From assembly GCF_003019035.1 (NCBI RefSeq), contig NZ_CP027447.1: a DNA stretch of 64,000 nucleotides. The stretch is one strand, 5' to 3'. The stretch's first letter is position 1. Each line of letters begins with the position of its first letter. A program made the translations under genes and the position numbers. The notes below the pieces were generated by a model. That model ran no database searches and was not told where the DNA came from. It saw only the letters and a list, made by a program, of their open reading frames with translations. This document shows, in pieces, positions 13,438-56,477 of this stretch. This stretch comes from Escherichia coli (lineage in GTDB: Bacteria > Pseudomonadota > Gammaproteobacteria > Enterobacterales > Enterobacteriaceae).

Positions 13438-14421
13438 TTACTTCACGTTGTAATTACGCAGAGCGTTACGCCCCAACACAATCCCCGCGCCCACCATACC
13501 GCCCAGCAGCACTGCCAGAATCAAGGTGATTGCTTTCTTCGGGCTATCGCGACGAATTGGCAGTGTGGGTTTCATAACGTAACGGTAGGCATGAATATCA
13601 AGATCATCAACCTTCAGACTTTCGATATCCAGCAGGTTTTGACGAGTCTGATAATAGTTTGGCGAGAACACAAGCGGACGAGTCGCTTCGTGCTTAATCA
13701 TCGACCCCAGTGCTTCGCTACCTAACAAAAGCAACGTGTCCTGAGTAATATTTTCACCAGTCTGCTGAATCTGCGGCTTTGTTACCTGCGCCTGATTCGC
13801 ATACTGCAACGCTTCCTGAATCTGGCGGATACGCAGCGTTTTTTGCTCCTGAGCCACCACTTCCTGAGTTTTCAGGGAATCCTGCAATGTTTTCATGCCC
13901 AACGCAATATTATCCTTCAGGTCCTTTTCCAGCTCTTCATTCACTCGGTCATCAACTTGTTGAATGTATTCAGCCAGCTTTTTCTGTGCATCCGCCGCCG
14001 TTTTCCCAACATAAGAAACAGCTAACGGTAACGGCTGGTTTTTAACAGCGGGCTCGATGGTCAGTTTTTCGCGTTCTTCCTGATTATCCAGCGTTTCCGC
14101 TAATGCAGAGAAAGCGGAACTGAAGCGACCAATCAACGCCTCCTGTAAATCAGCTACTTTTGGCGCAGCCTGGCCATAAATTACATTCATGGCGTTGTTA
14201 TAGCCGGCAATTTGCCCCACATCAGGTTGAGTGACAATGGCTGTTGATGTCCATTGCTCTTTCGCTACTGCCAGGTATCCAATAGCCAACACGATAGCCA
14301 CAATGACTGTGGCGATAATGGTCATCTTACCGCGCCACAGTTGTACCAGTAAATCAATTAAATCAATCTGTTCCGGGTCATTGTTGTGCCCAGAAATATT
14401 ATTATTTTCAACTTTCATCAT
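13438..14421 (-). CDS. wzzB: O-antigen chain-length determinant (polysaccharide co-polymerase 1)
   Basis: 327 aa, N- and C-terminal TM segments flanking a long coiled periplasmic region; adjacent to ugd as in E. coli. Confidence 0.85.
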   Translation of the reverse strand: MMKVENNNISGHNNDPEQIDLIDLLVQLWRGKMTIIATVIVAIVLAIGYLAVAKEQWTSTAIVTQPDVGQIAGYNNAMNVIYGQAAPKVADLQEALIGRFSSAFSALAETLDNQEEREKLTIEPAVKNQPLPLAVSYVGKTAADAQKKLAEYIQQVDDRVNEELEKDLKDNIALGMKTLQDSLKTQEVVAQEQKTLRIRQIQEALQYANQAQVTKPQIQQTGENITQDTLLLLGSEALGSMIKHEATRPLVFSPNYYQTRQNLLDIESLKVDDLDIHAYRYVMKPTLPIRRDSPKKAITLILAVLLGGMVGAGIVLGRNALRNYNVK

Positions 14422-19003: not shown

Positions 19004-19750
19004 TTACTTCTTAATAAATTGAGGAAGTTTGGATAGATTTTTATACGCTAAAGCTATTGGCCAGATAATACCATTCTGTTTCATAGCGCGAATATCTTCC
19101 ATTGATTTATTGATCATGGAAGATACTGAGCGATTGCTAATTCCACCAACACGCATTTTCACTAATACTTTTGGTAAGTACGCTATTGAAATACGCTGTT
19201 TTAAAATATAACGTAATAATGAGTCATAATCAGCAGATATTCGGTAATCTAATGAAAAACAACCAAACTGACTATAACAATCGCGTTTCATATAAAATGA
19301 TGGGTGTGGCGGCATCCAACCTAGTTTCATCTTCAAACGGCTAAATGAGCCACTCTTCCATAATCTAATACGTTTAGTTGTATCATTTTTGGCAACATAC
19401 TCCAAATCACCATAAACAGCATCACACCCTGAACTTTCAAATGTTTTTACTATATCTGCAATAGCATCGTCATAAGCAAGTAAGTCATCAGAGTGCAAAA
19501 ATCCAATTATATCACCAGAAGCTGCTTGAATACCTTTATTCAGTGCATCATAAATGCCATTGTCGGGTTCGCAAATGATTGTTGAAACTCTTGTACATTT
19601 ACTCTTGATTAGCTCTATTGTATTATCTTTCGATGCCCCATCTACAACTATATATTCAATATCTGAATGTGTTTGTTTTTCCAGAGAGAGTAATGTATCA
19701 AGAAGCGTTTTTTCACTATTATAAGTTGCTGTGATAATTGAAATCCGCAT
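19004..19750 (-). CDS. family 2 glycosyltransferase (GT-A fold)
   Basis: 248 aa, N-terminal ISIITATYN...VVDGASKD pattern typical of GT2. Confidence 0.65.
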   Translation of the reverse strand: MRISIITATYNSEKTLLDTLLSLEKQTHSDIEYIVVDGASKDNTIELIKSKCTRVSTIICEPDNGIYDALNKGIQAASGDIIGFLHSDDLLAYDDAIADIVKTFESSGCDAVYGDLEYVAKNDTTKRIRLWKSGSFSRLKMKLGWMPPHPSFYMKRDCYSQFGCFSLDYRISADYDSLLRYILKQRISIAYLPKVLVKMRVGGISNRSVSSMINKSMEDIRAMKQNGIIWPIALAYKNLSKLPQFIKK

Positions 19751-21156
19751 TAGTATCCAACTCCAGAAGAAGAAACTCTTATAACATCATCCTCTTCCAA
19801 GTAGACTCCTGATCTAACCTCAATTATTTCAAGTGGGATCTTGCCAGGATTTTCAATGGCATGTGGAACACCAACAGGTATATATGTTGATTCATTTTCT
19901 GAAACAAGATAAGTTTTCTCCTCAAGATGAACTTTAGCTGTCCCCGAGACAACAATCCAATGTTCAGTACGATGGTAATGGATCTGCTTAGCGGTAATGT
20001 GACCCGGTAATACAATCACATGTTTAACCTGAAAGCGTTGCCCTTCAGCTATAGTGTCATGACTGCCCCAAGGACGAAAAATTTCCCGATGTTGTAAATA
20101 TTCTGTTCGATTATTCTTTTTAAGCTGAGCTACGATGTTTTTAACTTGCTGAACTTTATCTTTATGAGCAACTAATACTGCATCTTTCGTTTCAACGACA
20201 ACCAAATCCTTTACGCCCACGGCCCCAATAAGTCTATGCTGCGAATAAAGATAACTATCTGTAGCATCCTCAACCAAAACATCACCACGAATGGCATTGC
20301 CGCTTTGGTCTTTTGAACTTATTTCCCACAGCGCAGACCATGACCCAACATCACTCCATTGCGCATCCAATGGTACGACCACAGCTTCAGCTGTTTTTTC
20401 CATAACGGCATAGTCGATTGACTCTTCAGGGCAGCAAGAAAAAGAAGAGTTATCCAAGCGGATAAAATCTAAATCTTGAGTCGAGGAAGCTAAGGATTGC
20501 TGACAACTCTCTAGAATATCTGGACGGAATTTTTTTAGTTCATCGATGAATACAGATGCTCTGAACATAAACATTCCACTATTCCAAAGATAACCGCCAT
20601 CTGACAAATACCGCTGAGCTAATTCTAGCTCTGGCTTTTCAACAAAAGCTGCAACTTTATAACCTTGCCCACTAAGTGGATCACCTGACTTAATATAGCC
20701 ATACCCTGTCTCTGGAGCTGTTGGAACGATGCCAAATGTGACCAACTTACCTTGCTGCGCAAAGTCCTTCGCGGCCAAAACTGCTGTAATGAAACTATTC
20801 TCATCCTGAATTTCATGGTCAGCCGCAAGAACCAAAAGTATAGGATCCTCTCCACTTGCCGTTGCCTGAAGCGCTGCAAGGGCTACAGCAGGTGCCGTAT
20901 TGCGCCCAACAGGCTCAAGCAAAATCCCACTATGCTTTAAACCAACTTTACGTAATTGTTCAGCAACAATGAAACGATGTGATTCATTACAAATGATCAA
21001 AGCAGGATTGTGTTCAATCTTTTCTAGCCGTCGCAAAGTCTCTTGCAACATAGTTAAGCGGCTATTTAAAGACAGAAATTGTTTCGGATAAAGTGTACGT
21101 GAAAGAGGCCATAATCTGGTACCAGATCCACCGGCCATGACAACGGGAAGTAGCAT
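19750..21156 (-). CDS. manC: mannose-1-phosphate guanylyltransferase (ManC), O-antigen cluster copy
   Basis: 468 aa, close paralogue of CpsB further downstream ([15 protein letters not shown]... C-terminal cupin region). Confidence 0.85.
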   Translation of the reverse strand: MLLPVVMAGGSGTRLWPLSRTLYPKQFLSLNSRLTMLQETLRRLEKIEHNPALIICNESHRFIVAEQLRKVGLKHSGILLEPVGRNTAPAVALAALQATASGEDPILLVLAADHEIQDENSFITAVLAAKDFAQQGKLVTFGIVPTAPETGYGYIKSGDPLSGQGYKVAAFVEKPELELAQRYLSDGGYLWNSGMFMFRASVFIDELKKFRPDILESCQQSLASSTQDLDFIRLDNSSFSCCPEESIDYAVMEKTAEAVVVPLDAQWSDVGSWSALWEISSKDQSGNAIRGDVLVEDATDSYLYSQHRLIGAVGVKDLVVVETKDAVLVAHKDKVQQVKNIVAQLKKNNRTEYLQHREIFRPWGSHDTIAEGQRFQVKHVIVLPGHITAKQIHYHRTEHWIVVSGTAKVHLEEKTYLVSENESTYIPVGVPHAIENPGKIPLEIIEVRSGVYLEEDDVIRVSSSGVGY

Positions 21157-22594: not shown

Positions 22595-23728
22595 TTAACG
22601 CTCCAGAGAAACCGAAACATCATAACCATGGCTTTTAAGAAGTGCATGTTGTTTCGCTTTTAACAAATCGCTAGCAACCATTTCTGCACACATCTCTTCA
22701 ACTGTAATCTCTGGTTCCCAGCCTAATAGATTTTTTGCTTTTGCAGGGTCACCTAAGAGTGTTTCAACTTCAGCAGGACGGAAATAACGAGGATCAACCC
22801 GAACTATAACGTCTCCAACATTTACACCAATAGCACAATCGGAAATTTTATTAACTACTGTGGCTATCTCATCTACACCCTCACCAGAGAATTCAAGTTC
22901 AAGTCCGACTTCTTTAGCAGCCATACGGACAAATTCACGCACAGATATCTGTTTACCTGTGGCAATGACAAAATCCTCTGGATGATCTTGCTGAAGCATC
23001 ATCCATTGCATGCGAACATAATCTTTAGCGTGTCCCCAGTCACGCAACGAATCCAGATTACCCAAATATAAGCATTGTTCGATCCCCTGAGAAATATTAG
23101 CTATTGCACGAGTAATTTTACGGGTAACAAAAGTTTCTCCACGGCGTGGCGATTCATGGTTAAAAAGAATACCATTACAAGCATATATACCATAAGATTC
23201 ACGGTAGTTAACTGTTATCCAGTAAGCATACATCTTAGCTACAGCATAAGGCGAACGCGGGTAGAATGGAGTTGTTTCACGCTGAGGAATCTCTTGCACT
23301 AAACCAAAAAGTTCTGAAGTAGATGCTTGATAGAAACGTGTTTTTTTCTCCAGCCCACAGATTCGTATTGCTTCTAATAAACGTAATGTCCCTATTGCAT
23401 CTACATCTGCTGTATATTCTGGTGACTCGAATGACACTGCGACATGGGATTGTGCACCAAGGTTATAAATTTCATCCGGTTGAATTTCTTGGATTAAACG
23501 GATCAGATTCGATGTATCTGTTAAATCCCCATAGTGTAAAATAAAATTAGGCTCATCAACGAATCGTGATTGATATATATGATCAATTCTATCAGTGTTA
23601 AATGACGATGCTCGGCGTTTTATACCATGTACTTCATAACCTTTTTCAATAAGAAATTCTGCAAGATATGAACCATCTTGTCCAGTTACGCCTGTGATAA
23701 ATGCAACTTTTTTATTCATTTTAATCAT
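22595..23728 (-). CDS. gmd: GDP-mannose 4,6-dehydratase, O-antigen cluster copy
   Basis: 377 aa, [16 protein letters not shown] motif; paralogue of the colanic acid gmd; true start may be the internal Met (MNKKVAF). Confidence 0.85.
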
Positions 23729-23737
23729 GTTATGTTC

Positions 23738-24769
23738 CTAAATATTCAACTCATTATAAACTTTAATCGTTTCATTAACACATTTTGACCATGAAAATTT
23801 TTGCGCCTGCAGTAAACCTCTTTCGATCATAACATTTCTTTTTAAATTAACTAATTCTAAAGCTTCTTTTAACGTAAACTCATTAATATCATCAATATAA
23901 ATAGGCGCATTCCCCCCTACTTCCGGCAACGAGGATGTGTTTGCACAAATAACTGGACATCCGGCCTGCATAGCTTCTAGGACAGGTATTCCAAACCCCT
24001 CATAACTGGAAGGGTAAACAAGTGCATATGCAGTATTATACTGTATATTTAAATCTTCATTACTCAAAAATGTAAAATGTTCATATCTATTTTTTAAATA
24101 TTTTTCAAGGAGTTCTCTTTCATATTTTTTAAGCGAGCCTCCGCCTACAATTGTAAGCTTTAAGCCATGTAATTTCCCTACAGCTTTGACTGCAAGAACG
24201 AAATTTTTATAACCTTCTCTGGCACCGACAAACAAAACTGAATTATTTACTCTCATATCAGACATGTTAGAAATATGTTTATATGATGGGGATACACCAT
24301 TATAAATCACTCTAATTTTATCTTCGCTAATTGGACAGTACTTAAGTAAATCTCTAGCAGTGTTGTTTGAAATACAAATTACGATATCACTATTCTTGAT
24401 AGCATGATATTTTTGAAGAGAATGAATAAATTTTGACATTCCTCCCCTGTATTTTTCATAGGTGAAATCATGAACAGTTGTAACATTTTTCACATTCAAA
24501 TTAGGACTTTTATGAACTCGATAATAACTTGAGTGTAAAACCCTAGTTTTAATATCACTTACATTTCTATATCTTTCTAAAATTCTTGGCTTACGATATT
24601 GCAACTTTAAGTCGCTTGTATCAAACTCAAATTCTTTATTTTTATACAATAGAATTTCAGCTTGGTAATTTGATTTCACCATTCCTTGGATCAACTCATT
24701 AAAGTATACACTTATTCCACCAAATGATTGGAGATTATAAATAATCCCATCGATAGTTACCATTATCAT
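23738..24769 (-). CDS. GT-B fold glycosyltransferase (GT4-like)
   Basis: 343 aa; C-terminal region with EGFGIPVLEAM motif characteristic of GT4 retaining transferases. Confidence 0.65.
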   Translation of the reverse strand: MIMVTIDGIIYNLQSFGGISVYFNELIQGMVKSNYQAEILLYKNKEFEFDTSDLKLQYRKPRILERYRNVSDIKTRVLHSSYYRVHKSPNLNVKNVTTVHDFTYEKYRGGMSKFIHSLQKYHAIKNSDIVICISNNTARDLLKYCPISEDKIRVIYNGVSPSYKHISNMSDMRVNNSVLFVGAREGYKNFVLAVKAVGKLHGLKLTIVGGGSLKKYERELLEKYLKNRYEHFTFLSNEDLNIQYNTAYALVYPSSYEGFGIPVLEAMQAGCPVICANTSSLPEVGGNAPIYIDDINEFTLKEALELVNLKRNVMIERGLLQAQKFSWSKCVNETIKVYNELNI

Positions 24770-26022
24770 CGCCCTCGCAAGGTAATACGTTCGATTAGAA
24801 CGAACAATATCAAAAAGAAGATCAGTAACAATACATATGCCGGCCCAGCAAAATAAGTTCCAAATGAAGGTGAAATGAGAATTATAGAAAGCAAAAAAAA
24901 GGATGCAGAGTTCGTAATTACTTTTGCATTAAACATTTTAAGCTTAGCAAAAATATAGCCATAAAAGATATTCATAGGTGAAAGAAAAGTTAAAATGATC
25001 AGTCCAACATATCCATAATCAACAAAATTATCCATCCCTTTTGAAAAAGCAGGTGTATGCCCCGACTCTGCAGCTCCTGGATAATAGATTTCATTTACAT
25101 GCAGAAATCCATATACAAAAGGTTTATCAGGAAACAAACCTCTCGGTATATAAGACCAAAATTGGCTGAAATAGACTGTGCCATTGAAAAACTTAACCAC
25201 ACCTTTATCAATATCTTGTAGCAAATAAATACTGTTTTGATACTGGTCAAAATAAGACAATACTACATCGACATTCATATTTCCAATAGCTAAAAATAAA
25301 TTATAGAGAATGGCACACGCTGCCAGGGGTGTAACTAAAATCAGGCCAAATTTTAGAAATCTAGATTTATTAAGACTTAACACTGCAAGATAAAAAATCG
25401 CAAATGAAAGAATAAAGGTTTTCGATCCAAGAAAAAAAACCAAGGTACAATAGAATATCGCGCATAAAAATAATTTTATTTCCGAGCGTAAAGCCAACGC
25501 CCTGGAAAAATAAGATACCGAAAGCATACTTAAAGAAAAGGCATATAAAACACCATTACCTTCTCGATAGTTTTGATAACCATCCCTGGGATTCGTCAAC
25601 CATCCAGAAATACCTATTTCTGACTTTGAAGAAAGAAGAACAAATAATGTAATAAACAGAACCAATGTAATATTTGATATTCTTTTTAATTTTGTATGCG
25701 AAATTAAGCAAGTTAAATAGATCTCTCTATTTTTGAATGCTATATTAAAAATAAAATAAAAGAAAATTATAGATAAAACACCCACAAAAGAGTATATGTT
25801 ATATATAAATAAAGCCTCATTATAATATTGATTTAAAGCAAAGTCTGAACCGTAGAAAAGAGGAGCCAAAATATTTTCCAATAGAAAAACCGGAAATAAA
25901 ATAATGGCGTAAATGGTAAAGGGATTGATAATTGTAAGTCTTAGCGTTTTCGTCGCTAATAAAGAAAAAGAATAATATAGTACTATAGCTAGTGTAACAT
26001 TTAAACAATATATTATTACCAC
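24766..26022 (-). CDS. wzy: O-antigen polymerase candidate
   Basis: 418 aa, very hydrophobic multi-pass membrane protein with low-complexity AT-rich codon usage, located between glycosyltransferase genes; start codon uncertain. Confidence 0.55.
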   Translation of the reverse strand: MVIIYCLNVTLAIVLYYSFSLLATKTLRLTIINPFTIYAIILFPVFLLENILAPLFYGSDFALNQYYNEALFIYNIYSFVGVLSIIFFYFIFNIAFKNREIYLTCLISHTKLKRISNITLVLFITLFVLLSSKSEIGISGWLTNPRDGYQNYREGNGVLYAFSLSMLSVSYFSRALALRSEIKLFLCAIFYCTLVFFLGSKTFILSFAIFYLAVLSLNKSRFLKFGLILVTPLAACAILYNLFLAIGNMNVDVVLSYFDQYQNSIYLLQDIDKGVVKFFNGTVYFSQFWSYIPRGLFPDKPFVYGFLHVNEIYYPGAAESGHTPAFSKGMDNFVDYGYVGLIILTFLSPMNIFYGYIFAKLKMFNAKVITNSASFFLLSIILISPSFGTYFAGPAYVLLLIFFLILFVLIERITLRGR

Positions 26023-26032
26023 ATCCTCCCCC

Positions 26033-26842
26033 CTATCTTAAACCGAATAATTTGCGCTTAATTGATTTTGTTTTTTGATATAATGCTTGAGGAACAATCA
26101 CTTTAAATAAAACTTGCAATGAATTATAGACAGCAAATTTTATTTTATATGATAAGGGCATATGAATATTATTTTTAGCTAGAATATAAGCAATTTCTTT
26201 CTTGACTAATTTTTTATTAGATTCATTTGAACTTACACCCGAAGCATCCATTATGGATACAGGAAAATTCACATAATGCATCGTAGATGGATCTATTGTT
26301 CTTATCATAAAATCACTATCAGCAGCAATTTTTAGTGTTGTATCAAAGCGATTAGCATTATCTTTAAAAAAGCTAGAATGCTGGAAAGTACCCTGATGAG
26401 GAGGAAGTGAAGGCCGACCACATTCCCACTTTTTCTTTATTTTTCCGTAAACTCCAACTATATTATCTTCATCACTAAAATATACATCACCATATATAGT
26501 TGTTGCACTCATATTTTCGTGAATGGCATTTGCTATTTTTGAAAGAGTATTATTTTCATAGAATGTATCGCCAGCTCCCATAAAAATAACCCAATCGCCA
26601 TTTATGTGAGGAAGAGCTTTATTCCAAGCGTCGTATATTCCTTGATCAGATTCGCATAAAAAATAATCTATAATATCAATATATCTATAAATATATTCTA
26701 GTGTTGATTTGTTAGAGTTGCCGTCTATAACAATCCATTGAATATTACAATAATTTTGATTTTTAATAGATTCCGCAGTCTTGCAGAAATCTTCCTCACA
26801 ATTATACGTCGATGTTATTATAGTAATCTGTAAGCCATTCAT
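26033..26842 (-). CDS. family 2 glycosyltransferase
   Basis: 269 aa, N-terminal ITIITSTYN...VIDGNS pattern typical of GT2. Confidence 0.65.
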   Translation of the reverse strand: MNGLQITIITSTYNCEEDFCKTAESIKNQNYCNIQWIVIDGNSNKSTLEYIYRYIDIIDYFLCESDQGIYDAWNKALPHINGDWVIFMGAGDTFYENNTLSKIANAIHENMSATTIYGDVYFSDEDNIVGVYGKIKKKWECGRPSLPPHQGTFQHSSFFKDNANRFDTTLKIAADSDFMIRTIDPSTMHYVNFPVSIMDASGVSSNESNKKLVKKEIAYILAKNNIHMPLSYKIKFAVYNSLQVLFKVIVPQALYQKTKSIKRKLFGLR

Positions 26843-26848
26843 CTTAAC

Positions 26849-27559
26849 TCACTTATTTTTCATGGCAATATATTTTAATCTTAATTCTTTAATTAAGGTC
26901 TTTACTTTACTATCAGTGGAATACTCAATATTAAACGTGCCAGAGACTCCTCTTATTTTGGGAATAGTTGTTCCAATAACTCCTTTTAATTTATTATTTT
27001 TAATTTGCTCAAAAAAAATGTGTTCTAAATAAACACCATCAAGGTCACGCACAGATTTATAAGAATTAGCAAAAAAGTCCCAATATATTTTTTTATTTAC
27101 AACATAAAACCTTGTATCAATCATATTTTCATTCAGAAAAGGAACTGGTATAAAAAAAGCTTTACCATTGAATGCTTTTATACATTGCTTATAATTATCG
27201 ACGTATAGTTTTGATGTTATTTTTGCGAAACTTTCAGCATTAGACAAATAGCGACTATTCATTAATGCATACTCAATTATTTCACCCTCTCCGTAACCTT
27301 TACCATAAGATTTAACACTTTCTGTATCATTTTTGAAATGTATTATCTCGATCGAATCTTTATTAAGTATTTGTTTATCATTATGAATATCTTTCGTCAA
27401 ATCATAATCACTACCATCACATATTACTATAGAATCAGCATTCTTAGACAATTCTCTTATCGCTTTCAATGTATGTAATAATCTTGAATTTTCATCAGAA
27501 AGATTTGTAAGAGGAGCATTAGGTGAGATACAAGAAGTCACTAATACTGGGATTTTCAT
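26849..27559 (-). CDS. hypothetical protein in O-antigen cluster (possible unclassified glycosyltransferase)
   Basis: 236 aa from the ATG at 27559 (MKIPVLVTSCISP...), start overlapping the wzx stop as ATGA; the longer 282-aa reading would overlap wzx by about 140 nt; no family recognisable by eye. Confidence 0.45.
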   Translation of the reverse strand: MKIPVLVTSCISPNAPLTNLSDENSRLLHTLKAIRELSKNADSIVICDGSDYDLTKDIHNDKQILNKDSIEIIHFKNDTESVKSYGKGYGEGEIIEYALMNSRYLSNAESFAKITSKLYVDNYKQCIKAFNGKAFFIPVPFLNENMIDTRFYVVNKKIYWDFFANSYKSVRDLDGVYLEHIFFEQIKNNKLKGVIGTTIPKIRGVSGTFNIEYSTDSKVKTLIKELRLKYIAMKNK

Positions 27560-28800
27560 TTTTTCTTTTCCAGCCTCAACGAAATTAACATTAGTATAAA
27601 ATAATCGGCGGTGACTCTTGCGCTCCAGGCATAAGCCACACCTGCTACAGAAAAATACATAATTGAAAAATATAAAACTAGCAGATATGGAATACATTCA
27701 ACAAGATGAATGAGACCCGTAATTTTTGCATAACCTTTCGATTGGATTTGAGCAAATGGAACTTGAGCAAGAGAGTTGAATACAAAACCTACTAATAATA
27801 TTTGAAATATATAAGGACTCTCAGCGCTATATTGTTTTCCAAGCCATAAAGTTATAATATCACTAGCCTTCAAAGAAAACATAATAGATATAACTATACT
27901 AGTTACACTTATTAATAACGTAGCCTCTTTTATTATTTTTTTTCGCTCATTTTTTGTATTATTCTTGCATAGAGCAGGAAAAATTGTCCTTGCTATAGTT
28001 GTCGGTAATATAAGTAACTTTGAAATTGCATCCGCAGGAGCAATATATAACGAAGCTTTAGCAGGGCCAACTGCATTTGATAAGATAAATCGGTCAATAT
28101 TTGTAAGCAATGGGTTAATTATACTACTAATACTCGCCCATCCTCCAAAACTTAATAGTGCTTTTGTTTTACTTAGACTAAAATCCATTGTAAGCCTATT
28201 ATTTCTAAAAACAAAGAACACGCTTAAAAGAGCACCAGTTATTCTCGCAATCACCAATCCCAAAGTAGCATTAAGCAAACCAACATTTCCATGAATGAAA
28301 ATAACTGGTAGTAGCGCAGTTAACACACCTGTAATTGTTTTTTGTACATTTAATAATTTGAATTTTTCATATCCTTCTAATATCCCCCAACAAACCATAT
28401 TAAGAAGATAAAATGGCAGACAGTAGGATAAAACACTTATAGCATATGCAACACTTTCAGTTTGTTCCGGACCACTAATTAAGGATGCAATCTTATGGTT
28501 GCAGTAATAAAAAATTACGGATACAACAACACCAATAGATAATGTTAATAAAAATGATGTTGTAATTATTTGACTGATTGCCTTTTTGTCGTTTTTATTT
28601 AATGATATTTCACGTACAACGGCTCGCGAAAGTCCGAGATCAAATATACTTGCGTATCCAACTATTGTAAAAAACATTAAAAAAAAGCCAAAGTTAGTTA
28701 TTCCTAACTCCCTTGCCAAATACCCCATCGCAGGTATTGACAATAAAGTTGGGATTGCATACCCAGCCAAATTTATTAAACTATTTATTTTAATACTCAT
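27556..28800 (-). CDS. wzx: O-antigen flippase
   Basis: 414 aa, multi-pass membrane protein of polysaccharide-transporter type immediately downstream of rfbC. Confidence 0.7.
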   Translation of the reverse strand: MSIKINSLINLAGYAIPTLLSIPAMGYLARELGITNFGFFLMFFTIVGYASIFDLGLSRAVVREISLNKNDKKAISQIITTSFLLTLSIGVVVSVIFYYCNHKIASLISGPEQTESVAYAISVLSYCLPFYLLNMVCWGILEGYEKFKLLNVQKTITGVLTALLPVIFIHGNVGLLNATLGLVIARITGALLSVFFVFRNNRLTMDFSLSKTKALLSFGGWASISSIINPLLTNIDRFILSNAVGPAKASLYIAPADAISKLLILPTTIARTIFPALCKNNTKNERKKIIKEATLLISVTSIVISIMFSLKASDIITLWLGKQYSAESPYIFQILLVGFVFNSLAQVPFAQIQSKGYAKITGLIHLVECIPYLLVLYFSIMYFSVAGVAYAWSARVTADYFILMLISLRLEKKK

Positions 28801-32359: not shown

Positions 32360-32398
32360 CACGCTACCGCCCCTGGCTTAACAGCTACCAGAGCACTG
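32360..32398 (-). promoter_or_regulatory. JUMPstart element with ops site (GGCGGTAG) in the rfb 5' leader
   Basis: minus-strand sequence CAGTGCTCTGGTAGCTGTTAAGCCAGGGGCGGTAGCGTG; ops octamer at 32364-32371. Confidence 0.75.
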
Positions 32399-56438: not shown

Positions 56439-56477
56439 CACGCTACCGCCCCTGGCTTTTTAGCTACCAATACACTG
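56439..56477 (-). promoter_or_regulatory. JUMPstart-like element with ops site (GGCGGTAG) in the colanic acid operon leader
   Basis: CACGCTACCGCCCCTGGCTT on plus, i.e. AAGCCAGGGGCGGTAGCGTG on minus, about 185 bp upstream of the wza start; ops at 56443-56450. Confidence 0.7.

Follow-up and report, generated by a model that had tools for sequence, protein, structure and literature searches.

The 64,000-nucleotide (nt) stretch of Escherichia coli DNA analyzed here (the window; contig NZ_CP027447.1, assembly GCF_003019035.1) carries an O-antigen gene cluster whose genes are packed so tightly that several stop and start codons overlap. A megablast search of positions 23738-28800 against 5,426 complete E. 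coli genomes found eight that match this segment over its full length at 98.3-100% identity, and in each of the eight RefSeq names the flippase and the polymerase 'O36 family'. The complete gene order, taken from the RefSeq tables of two matching genomes, is galF, rfbB, rfbD, rfbA, rfbC, wzx, a hypothetical protein, GT2, wzy, GT4, gmd, fcl, gmm, manC, GT2, manB, gnd and ugd, where GT2 and GT4 are glycosyltransferase families, and the tabled cluster corresponds to roughly 14 to 32 kb of the window. Because O36-specific wzx and wzy lie between galF and gnd, the region is assigned as the core of the E. coli O36 O-antigen gene cluster, encoded on the minus strand with a low G+C content of ∼30%. 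The deposited O36 cluster (Iguchi et al. 2015, PMC4379981) and RefSeq have the same gene order at 98.3-100% nucleotide identity, and the RefSeq O36 annotation already gives the 236- and 341-amino-acid starts that are discussed below.

Five minus-strand genes occupy the segment. The O36 flippase gene wzx (27556-28800; 414 amino acids, TGA stop) matches Pfam Polysacc_synt and Polysacc_synt_3 and is the RefSeq 'O36 family O-antigen flippase'. It is followed by the hypothetical protein, an unnamed open reading frame (ORF) of 236 amino acids (orf236, 26849-27559) with a predicted GT-A fold that makes it a putative fourth glycosyltransferase. A GT2-family glycosyltransferase of 269 amino acids (26033-26842; Pfam PF00535, E=6e-19) begins 6 nt after orf236. 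The O36 polymerase gene wzy (24766-26022) is an intact 418-codon frame with a GTG start and tandem TGA TAA stops, and GenBank lists the identical protein under the name O36 polymerase. The GT4-family glycosyltransferase (23738-24763; Pfam Glycos_transf_1 and Glyco_transf_4) contains 341 amino acids, or 343 if translated from ATG 24769.

The sequence-only reading of this DNA had taken the tight junctions as a sign of a single operon, and the layout of the whole cluster supports this. All 15 genes from rfbB to manB are co-directional. When the 14 junctions between them were measured using the RefSeq starts, the gaps were -4, -1, -1, 2, 2, 3, 4, 5, 5, 6, 10, 16, 18 and 58 nt; 13 are thus 18 nt or shorter, and 10 fall in the -8 to +6 class. 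Upstream of rfbB, a JUMPstart element at 32360-32398 (minus strand) scores 61.1 bits with the Rfam model RF01707 (gathering score 35, E=4e-12) and contains the ops element GGCGGTAGCGTG as an exact match at 32371-32360, for which the chance expectation is 0.01. The ops sequence GGCGGTAG, which defines RfaH/ops-dependent polysaccharide operons, is therefore present in the rfbB 5' leader, and we identify the JUMPstart from its match as marking the 5' leader of the O-antigen operon. Only one strong intrinsic terminator was found on the minus strand, located 3' of gnd. A single RfaH/ops-dependent mRNA presumably spans the cluster from rfbB to manB. The exact ops/JUMPstart core (GGCGGTAGCGTG) recurs at 56439-56450 on the minus strand, where it precedes wza and heads the colanic-acid operon.

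Three junctions overlap when the RefSeq starts are used. The 3' end of wzx reads AAG AAA AAA TGA, and the ATG at 27559-27557 overlaps the TGA at 27558-27556 to form the minus-strand ATGA (27559-27556) reported previously; the same motif is present in an 88%-identical orthologue (L005) and in a 52%-identical orthologue from Buttiauxella. The single base common to manC and the second GT2 gene at 19750 was likewise confirmed, as a TAATG at 19748-19752 (minus strand, RefSeq coordinates). An equivalent TAATG joins rfbB to rfbD, with one base in common (31200, minus strand), and had been missed in the earlier reading. Both of the latter junctions are ATGA (-4) in Buttiauxella, and for rfbD and the GT2 gene after manC the overlapped starts chosen by RefSeq and found in Buttiauxella concur.

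ATG 27559 is in frame with a longer, 282-codon ORF and lies 46 codons downstream of its first ATG at 27697. Translation from ATG 27697 would give a 282-residue protein whose gene overlaps wzx by 142 nt. In its favor, the frame is open for 46 codons beginning with an ATG, it is conserved in E. coli alleles and in L005, and a 282-residue product is annotated in one old GenBank record (ENF51745.1). Homologues do not cover the additional residues. When the 282-residue protein was used to search 5.8 billion proteins, the query coverage of all 159 matches was at most 84%, which equals 236/282, and the N-terminal methionine of every one of the 25 aligned homologues coincided with Met47 of the longer product. 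In a library-wide profile search (E≤0.001; 2,475 family representatives), the best 150 of the 2,475 matches are mostly ∼240-260 amino acids long, and the match mostly starts no further in than about residue ten. Buttiauxella has an in-frame stop two codons before the ATGA, leaving no longer product possible there.

The 141 nt upstream of ATG 27559 were also compared with the 88%-identical orthologue. The 16 substitutions are distributed 5, 1 and 10 over the three codon positions of the wzx frame versus 10, 5 and 1 over those of the extension frame, and they change 3 of 46 amino acids in the former versus 11 of 47 in the latter, a pattern indicating selection on the wzx frame only. The predicted anti-Shine-Dalgarno duplex is -6.2 kcal/mol at ATG 27559 as compared with -2.2 kcal/mol, equal to background, at ATG 27697, so inspection of the Shine-Dalgarno sequences, which had been proposed as a check, favors the shorter product. 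RefSeq gives 236 amino acids in every genome whose annotation was read, and that form is present on more than 800 contigs. Five independent lines (homologue starts, the Buttiauxella stop, the substitutions, the Shine-Dalgarno sequences and RefSeq) thus uphold the original argument against the 282-residue product, which we consider to have almost no chance of being real. We conclude from these comparisons that orf236 starts at ATG 27559 and encodes 236 amino acids, and that the 46-codon extension (27560-27697, minus strand) is spurious: the 282-codon ORF is an artifact of an alternative frame that is open by chance within the wzx 3' end.

The A-run at the end of wzx raises another way in which the two genes could be joined. 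Relative to wzx, orf236 is read in the -1 frame, and the run of six A residues directly precedes the wzx stop, so that a -1 ribosomal frameshift on AAG AAA AAA TGA could fuse Wzx to the downstream protein; one metagenomic contig does encode a 647-residue fusion of Wzx to a member of the orf236 family. Misassembly or faulty gene calling could explain this lone fusion. The A-run is missing in Buttiauxella, where the corresponding sequence is CTG AAA GAA GAT GA, the E. coli run does not fit the canonical X XXY YYZ heptamer, and no stimulatory structure was found (z=-0.42). We therefore rejected a frameshifted fusion, the likelihood of which is negligible in our judgment, and return to orf236 as a separate protein begun at the overlapping ATG.

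The wzy/GT4 junction is less straightforward. It had been described as a 4-nt overlap at 24766-24769, and the ATGA is indeed present as sequence, but the probable GT4 start is the second ATG, which does not overlap the wzy coding sequence. The end of wzy is CGA TGA TAA; ATG 24769-24767 overlaps the TGA at 24768-24766, and a second in-frame ATG at 24763-24761 overlaps the tandem TAA by one base. The segment ATGATAATG (24761-24769, minus strand) thus holds both candidate starts and both an ATGA and a TAATG. Initiation at the first ATG, with a true 4-nt overlap, is a possibility that we rate as lower but appreciable: the original O36 deposit annotates the 343-residue form (BAQ00831.1), a ribosome terminating on wzy sits right on ATG 24769, and the overlap between these genes in Buttiauxella is 4 nt. 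The Buttiauxella overlap is a TTGA in which TTG is the sole possible GT4 start. However, the Buttiauxella GT4 N-terminus, (M)ITIDGIIYNLQ, aligns with E. coli Met3, MVTIDGIIYNLQ. In E. coli the junction reads GAGGGCG ATG ATA ATG G, placing the GAGGG only 2 nt from ATG 24769 versus 8 nt from ATG 24763, and RefSeq gives 341 amino acids, from the second ATG, in every genome whose annotation was read. The 341-residue form is also present in hundreds of GenBank contigs. Because of the Shine-Dalgarno spacing, the Buttiauxella alignment and the RefSeq annotation, ATG 24763 is the more likely GT4 start, with wzy and GT4 then 2 nt apart and non-overlapping. The use of overlaps as a guide to start codons therefore succeeded for orf236, whereas at GT4 it selected the less likely of the two. 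With either start the junction is tight enough for reinitiation.

The upstream end of wzy has a different arrangement. The TAG stop of the GT2 gene leads into GGGGGGAGG, the wzy Shine-Dalgarno sequence, and then into the GTG start at 26022, with a gap of 10 nt (26022-26033, minus strand). The Shine-Dalgarno sequence is G-rich and very strong (-11.3 kcal/mol) and is located just 2 nt from the GTG, a start codon that is conserved in Buttiauxella; an out-of-frame mini-ORF, ATG TGG TAA, overlaps the GTG (26016-26035, minus strand). The GTG, the close Shine-Dalgarno sequence and the mini-ORF may be a way to keep Wzy expression low. Residues 1-403 of the 418 in Wzy align to the Buttiauxella protein at 61% identity over 407 aligned columns.

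RefSeq flags wzy as a 'frameshifted' pseudogene in all four of the O36 genomes whose annotation was read (designated H1, H3, H5 and H7), whereas the ORF is intact here. We reject a frameshift as a general feature of the gene: the 418-codon frame is intact in the window and in H1 and H7, and real frameshifts are confined to assemblies H3 and H5, where several fall within runs of T (T5, T8). T8 runs are located in wzy at about 25446-25439 and 24905-24898.

Two further starts in the cluster contradict the habit of selecting the first ATG of an ORF. The longest rfbB frame, 384 codons from ATG 32354, begins directly downstream of the JUMPstart/ops element, while the start in RefSeq and Buttiauxella is GTG 32285, giving 361 amino acids. 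For gmd there are two candidate ATGs (23719-23728, minus strand) that would produce 377 or 374 amino acids. The upstream ATG has a better-placed AGGA and would leave a 9-nt gap after GT4; the downstream ATG, with a gap of 18 nt, is favored by RefSeq and by homology with Buttiauxella (MNNKIAL). Homology and RefSeq thus favor the later start in both genes, and we judge the first start of the rfbB ORF to be wrong on this comparison.

An overlap motif by itself provides little evidence. In the annotated region, 18 of 19 TGA stops have A, G or T just before them, and ten stops have TG directly after them, of which only five are annotated gene starts; an ATGA or TAATG motif is consequently weak evidence. 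Two features do rise above chance: the overlapping ATG coincides with the downstream protein's conserved N-terminus, and overlap itself is conserved in Buttiauxella. The Buttiauxella noackiae cluster (L003, L004) is syntenic with O36, with identical gene order from rmlB to manB and central proteins that are 50-58% identical to their O36 counterparts. There, exactly the four corresponding junctions overlap and the remaining ten do not (Fisher p=0.001; p=0.011 if GT4 has the short start). The two clusters differ in detail: all four Buttiauxella overlaps are -4, whereas rfbB/rfbD and manC/GT2 are -1 in E. coli, the Buttiauxella orf239/GT2 gap is 43 nt, and GT4 starts with TTG; the wzy GTG start is as in O36.

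We consider it very probable that these are ordinary operon junctions of the O36 cluster and that orf236 is 236 amino acids long. Translational coupling at the overlaps is plausible, as judged from junction geometry and its conservation. Ribosomes ending at the wzx TGA would most likely reinitiate at the overlapping ATG 27559, where a modest upstream GAGG may aid orf236 initiation in E. coli. The same termination-reinitiation would probably occur at rfbB/rfbD and manC/GT2, and at wzy/GT4 initiation at ATG 24763, 2 nt past the TGA, would still be within the distance for efficient reinitiation. The arrangement resembles that of the E. coli termination-reinitiation pairs such as hyfHI, astDB, ydbH/ynbE or menDH, which have the same -4 (ATGA) and -1 (TAATG/TGATG) motifs in co-directional operons (Huber et al. 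2019, PMC6728339; 2023, PMC10666635). In both sets a Shine-Dalgarno-like sequence lies inside the 3' end of the upstream gene. Coupling drops steeply with distance, and a gap of ∼20 nt nearly abolishes it (PMC6728339, PMC10666635). Of five native E. coli ATGA pairs that were tested, four proved coupled and one did not (PMC6728339).

Several observations weigh against coupling. In E. coli, all of the overlapped starts are preceded by usable Shine-Dalgarno sequences (about -6 kcal/mol), and therefore independent initiation is possible; the bioBF ATGA pair, which initiates independently (PMC6728339), provides a precedent. No unusual mRNA structure was found at the starts: the folds of 100-106 nt around seven junctions were no more stable than those of their shuffles (z -1.9 to +1.0), and we rejected coupling by means of a start-masking structure on this basis. 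Nor are overlaps enriched in O36 relative to two other operons in the window, his and colanic-acid: 10 of 26 junctions overlap there, against 3 of 14 in the O36 cluster (Fisher p=0.32), a count that rises to 4 of 14 if GT4 has the long start (p=0.73). The his and wca overlaps, which are -4 and -1 and include hisD/C, hisC/B, hisB/H, hisH/A, wcaK/L, gmm/wcaI and wcaB/C, are the same in kind, and O36 has if anything fewer. Among co-directional E. coli pairs generally, -4 (ATGA) is the commonest spacing, followed by -1, and 24% lie within -8 to +6 (PMC10666635). Overlaps are known to be enriched among subunits of one complex, and the O36 products are not known as such. Finally, both GT4 ATGs may be used.

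The Shine-Dalgarno sequences, the overlap frequency and the bioBF precedent, together with a change of overlap type at two junctions from -1 in E. coli to -4 in Buttiauxella, could be accounted for if the overlaps were neutral by-products of gene packing and the downstream genes were initiated independently under the direction of their own Shine-Dalgarno sequences. Neutral packing is harder to reconcile with the recurrence of overlaps at these four of the 14 junctions, and no others, in a cluster whose central genes are only 50-58% identical, or with the coupling of four of the five native ATGA pairs tested. In addition, the Buttiauxella orf239 start is essentially without a Shine-Dalgarno sequence (-1.5 kcal/mol, background), and the overlap is therefore its only obvious route of initiation. 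We accordingly view neutral packing as unlikely, though it deserves serious consideration, and favor termination-reinitiation at ordinary operon junctions.

Comparison with other strains provided additional observations on the cluster and its flanks. E. coli ST2747 (L013, NZ_CP007393.1) has a different O-antigen cluster with the O36 flanks in common at ∼89% identity, comprising rfbBDAC on one side and gmd, fcl, gmm, manC, GT2 and manB on the other, with an identical manC/GT2 TAATG junction. The central block of ST2747 from wzx to the glycosyltransferase gene is unrelated to O36, and the hypothetical protein after its flippase, considered as a possible relative, has no homology to orf236. The unrelated ST2747 core between like flanks suggests recombinational replacement of the serotype-specific core. 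An intact wzzB (327 amino acids) is located at 13438-14421 (minus strand) in the window. In NZ_CM160084.1, which is 100% identical over the 23738-28800 core, wzzB is split by ISVsa5, and IS200C is located between his and wzzB.

The orf236 protein belongs to a large family, ∼2,475 clusters at 50% identity, for which there is no Pfam or NCBIfam model; neither orf236 nor 87 relatives match either database. Against PF00535 (Glycos_transf_2) orf236 scores 13 bits, below the cut-off of 23.3, and glycosyltransferase models are matched by none of the 88 family members. The family profile also has no sequence match in the PDB. An AlphaFold2 model built from the 88-sequence alignment has a pLDDT of 95.7 and a pTM of 0.93, and on this model orf236 is confidently predicted to have a GT-A / nucleotide-diphospho-sugar transferase fold. 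Structures in the GT-A comparison set are 6-14% identical to orf236 and consist of K4CP (2z86), the WrtF fucosyltransferase (9omh), hyaluronan synthase (8smm) and SpsA (1h7l); the nucleotidyltransferases GlmU and IspD fit the fold just as well. Invariant residues include C47, D48, G49, S50, E91, K113, D148 and T149, with no clear DXD motif. Also invariant are a GKGYGEGE loop and a CDGS motif, which takes the place of the DDGS of GT2 enzymes.

In ten genomic contexts of the family that were sampled (loci including L003, L010, L011, L014, L017, L018 and L019), its members usually reside in polysaccharide loci. Six of the ten contain gmd/fcl and/or GT10 or GT11 fucosyltransferase genes, and in four a wzx gene adjoins or, in one case, is fused to the family member. 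A family member directly follows wzx in a Shewanella cluster, and the 647-residue protein on metagenomic contig L014 is the single Wzx fusion. The O36 antigen has two side-branch residues, and O-antigen clusters normally have one glycosyltransferase gene fewer than sugars (PMC7685785). Two side-branch residues on a backbone of three or more would therefore imply at least four glycosyltransferases, and three glycosyltransferase genes are recognized in the O36 cluster. The assignment of orf236 as the putative fourth O36 glycosyltransferase is reasonable but unproven.

A more specific role would be for the orf236 protein to be made in a fixed ratio with, and physically alongside, the Wzx flippase, for example if its final glycosylation step were to license the O-unit for flipping. 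This idea arises because the ATGA is kept at ∼50% divergence, the Buttiauxella gene lacks a Shine-Dalgarno sequence, the Shewanella gene is adjacent to wzx, and the L014 protein is a fusion. Support for a Wzx partnership is weak, wzx being adjacent or fused in only four of the ten contexts, and we regard the partnership as improbable.

Taken together, the O36 overlaps are textbook cases of the way in which E. coli operon genes are most commonly joined, and the cluster had been sequenced, and given the same starts, beforehand. The analysis is mainly one of annotation hygiene: the RefSeq 236-residue start is right and the lone 282-residue GenBank annotation is wrong, and a preference for the overlapping ATG is fallible, probably mis-assigning GT4 by two codons. 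Mildly novel is the recurrent linkage of an unmodelled family with a predicted GT-A fold to wzx and to fucosylation genes, which makes orf236 a reasonable candidate for an O36 glycosyltransferase beyond the three recognized genes.

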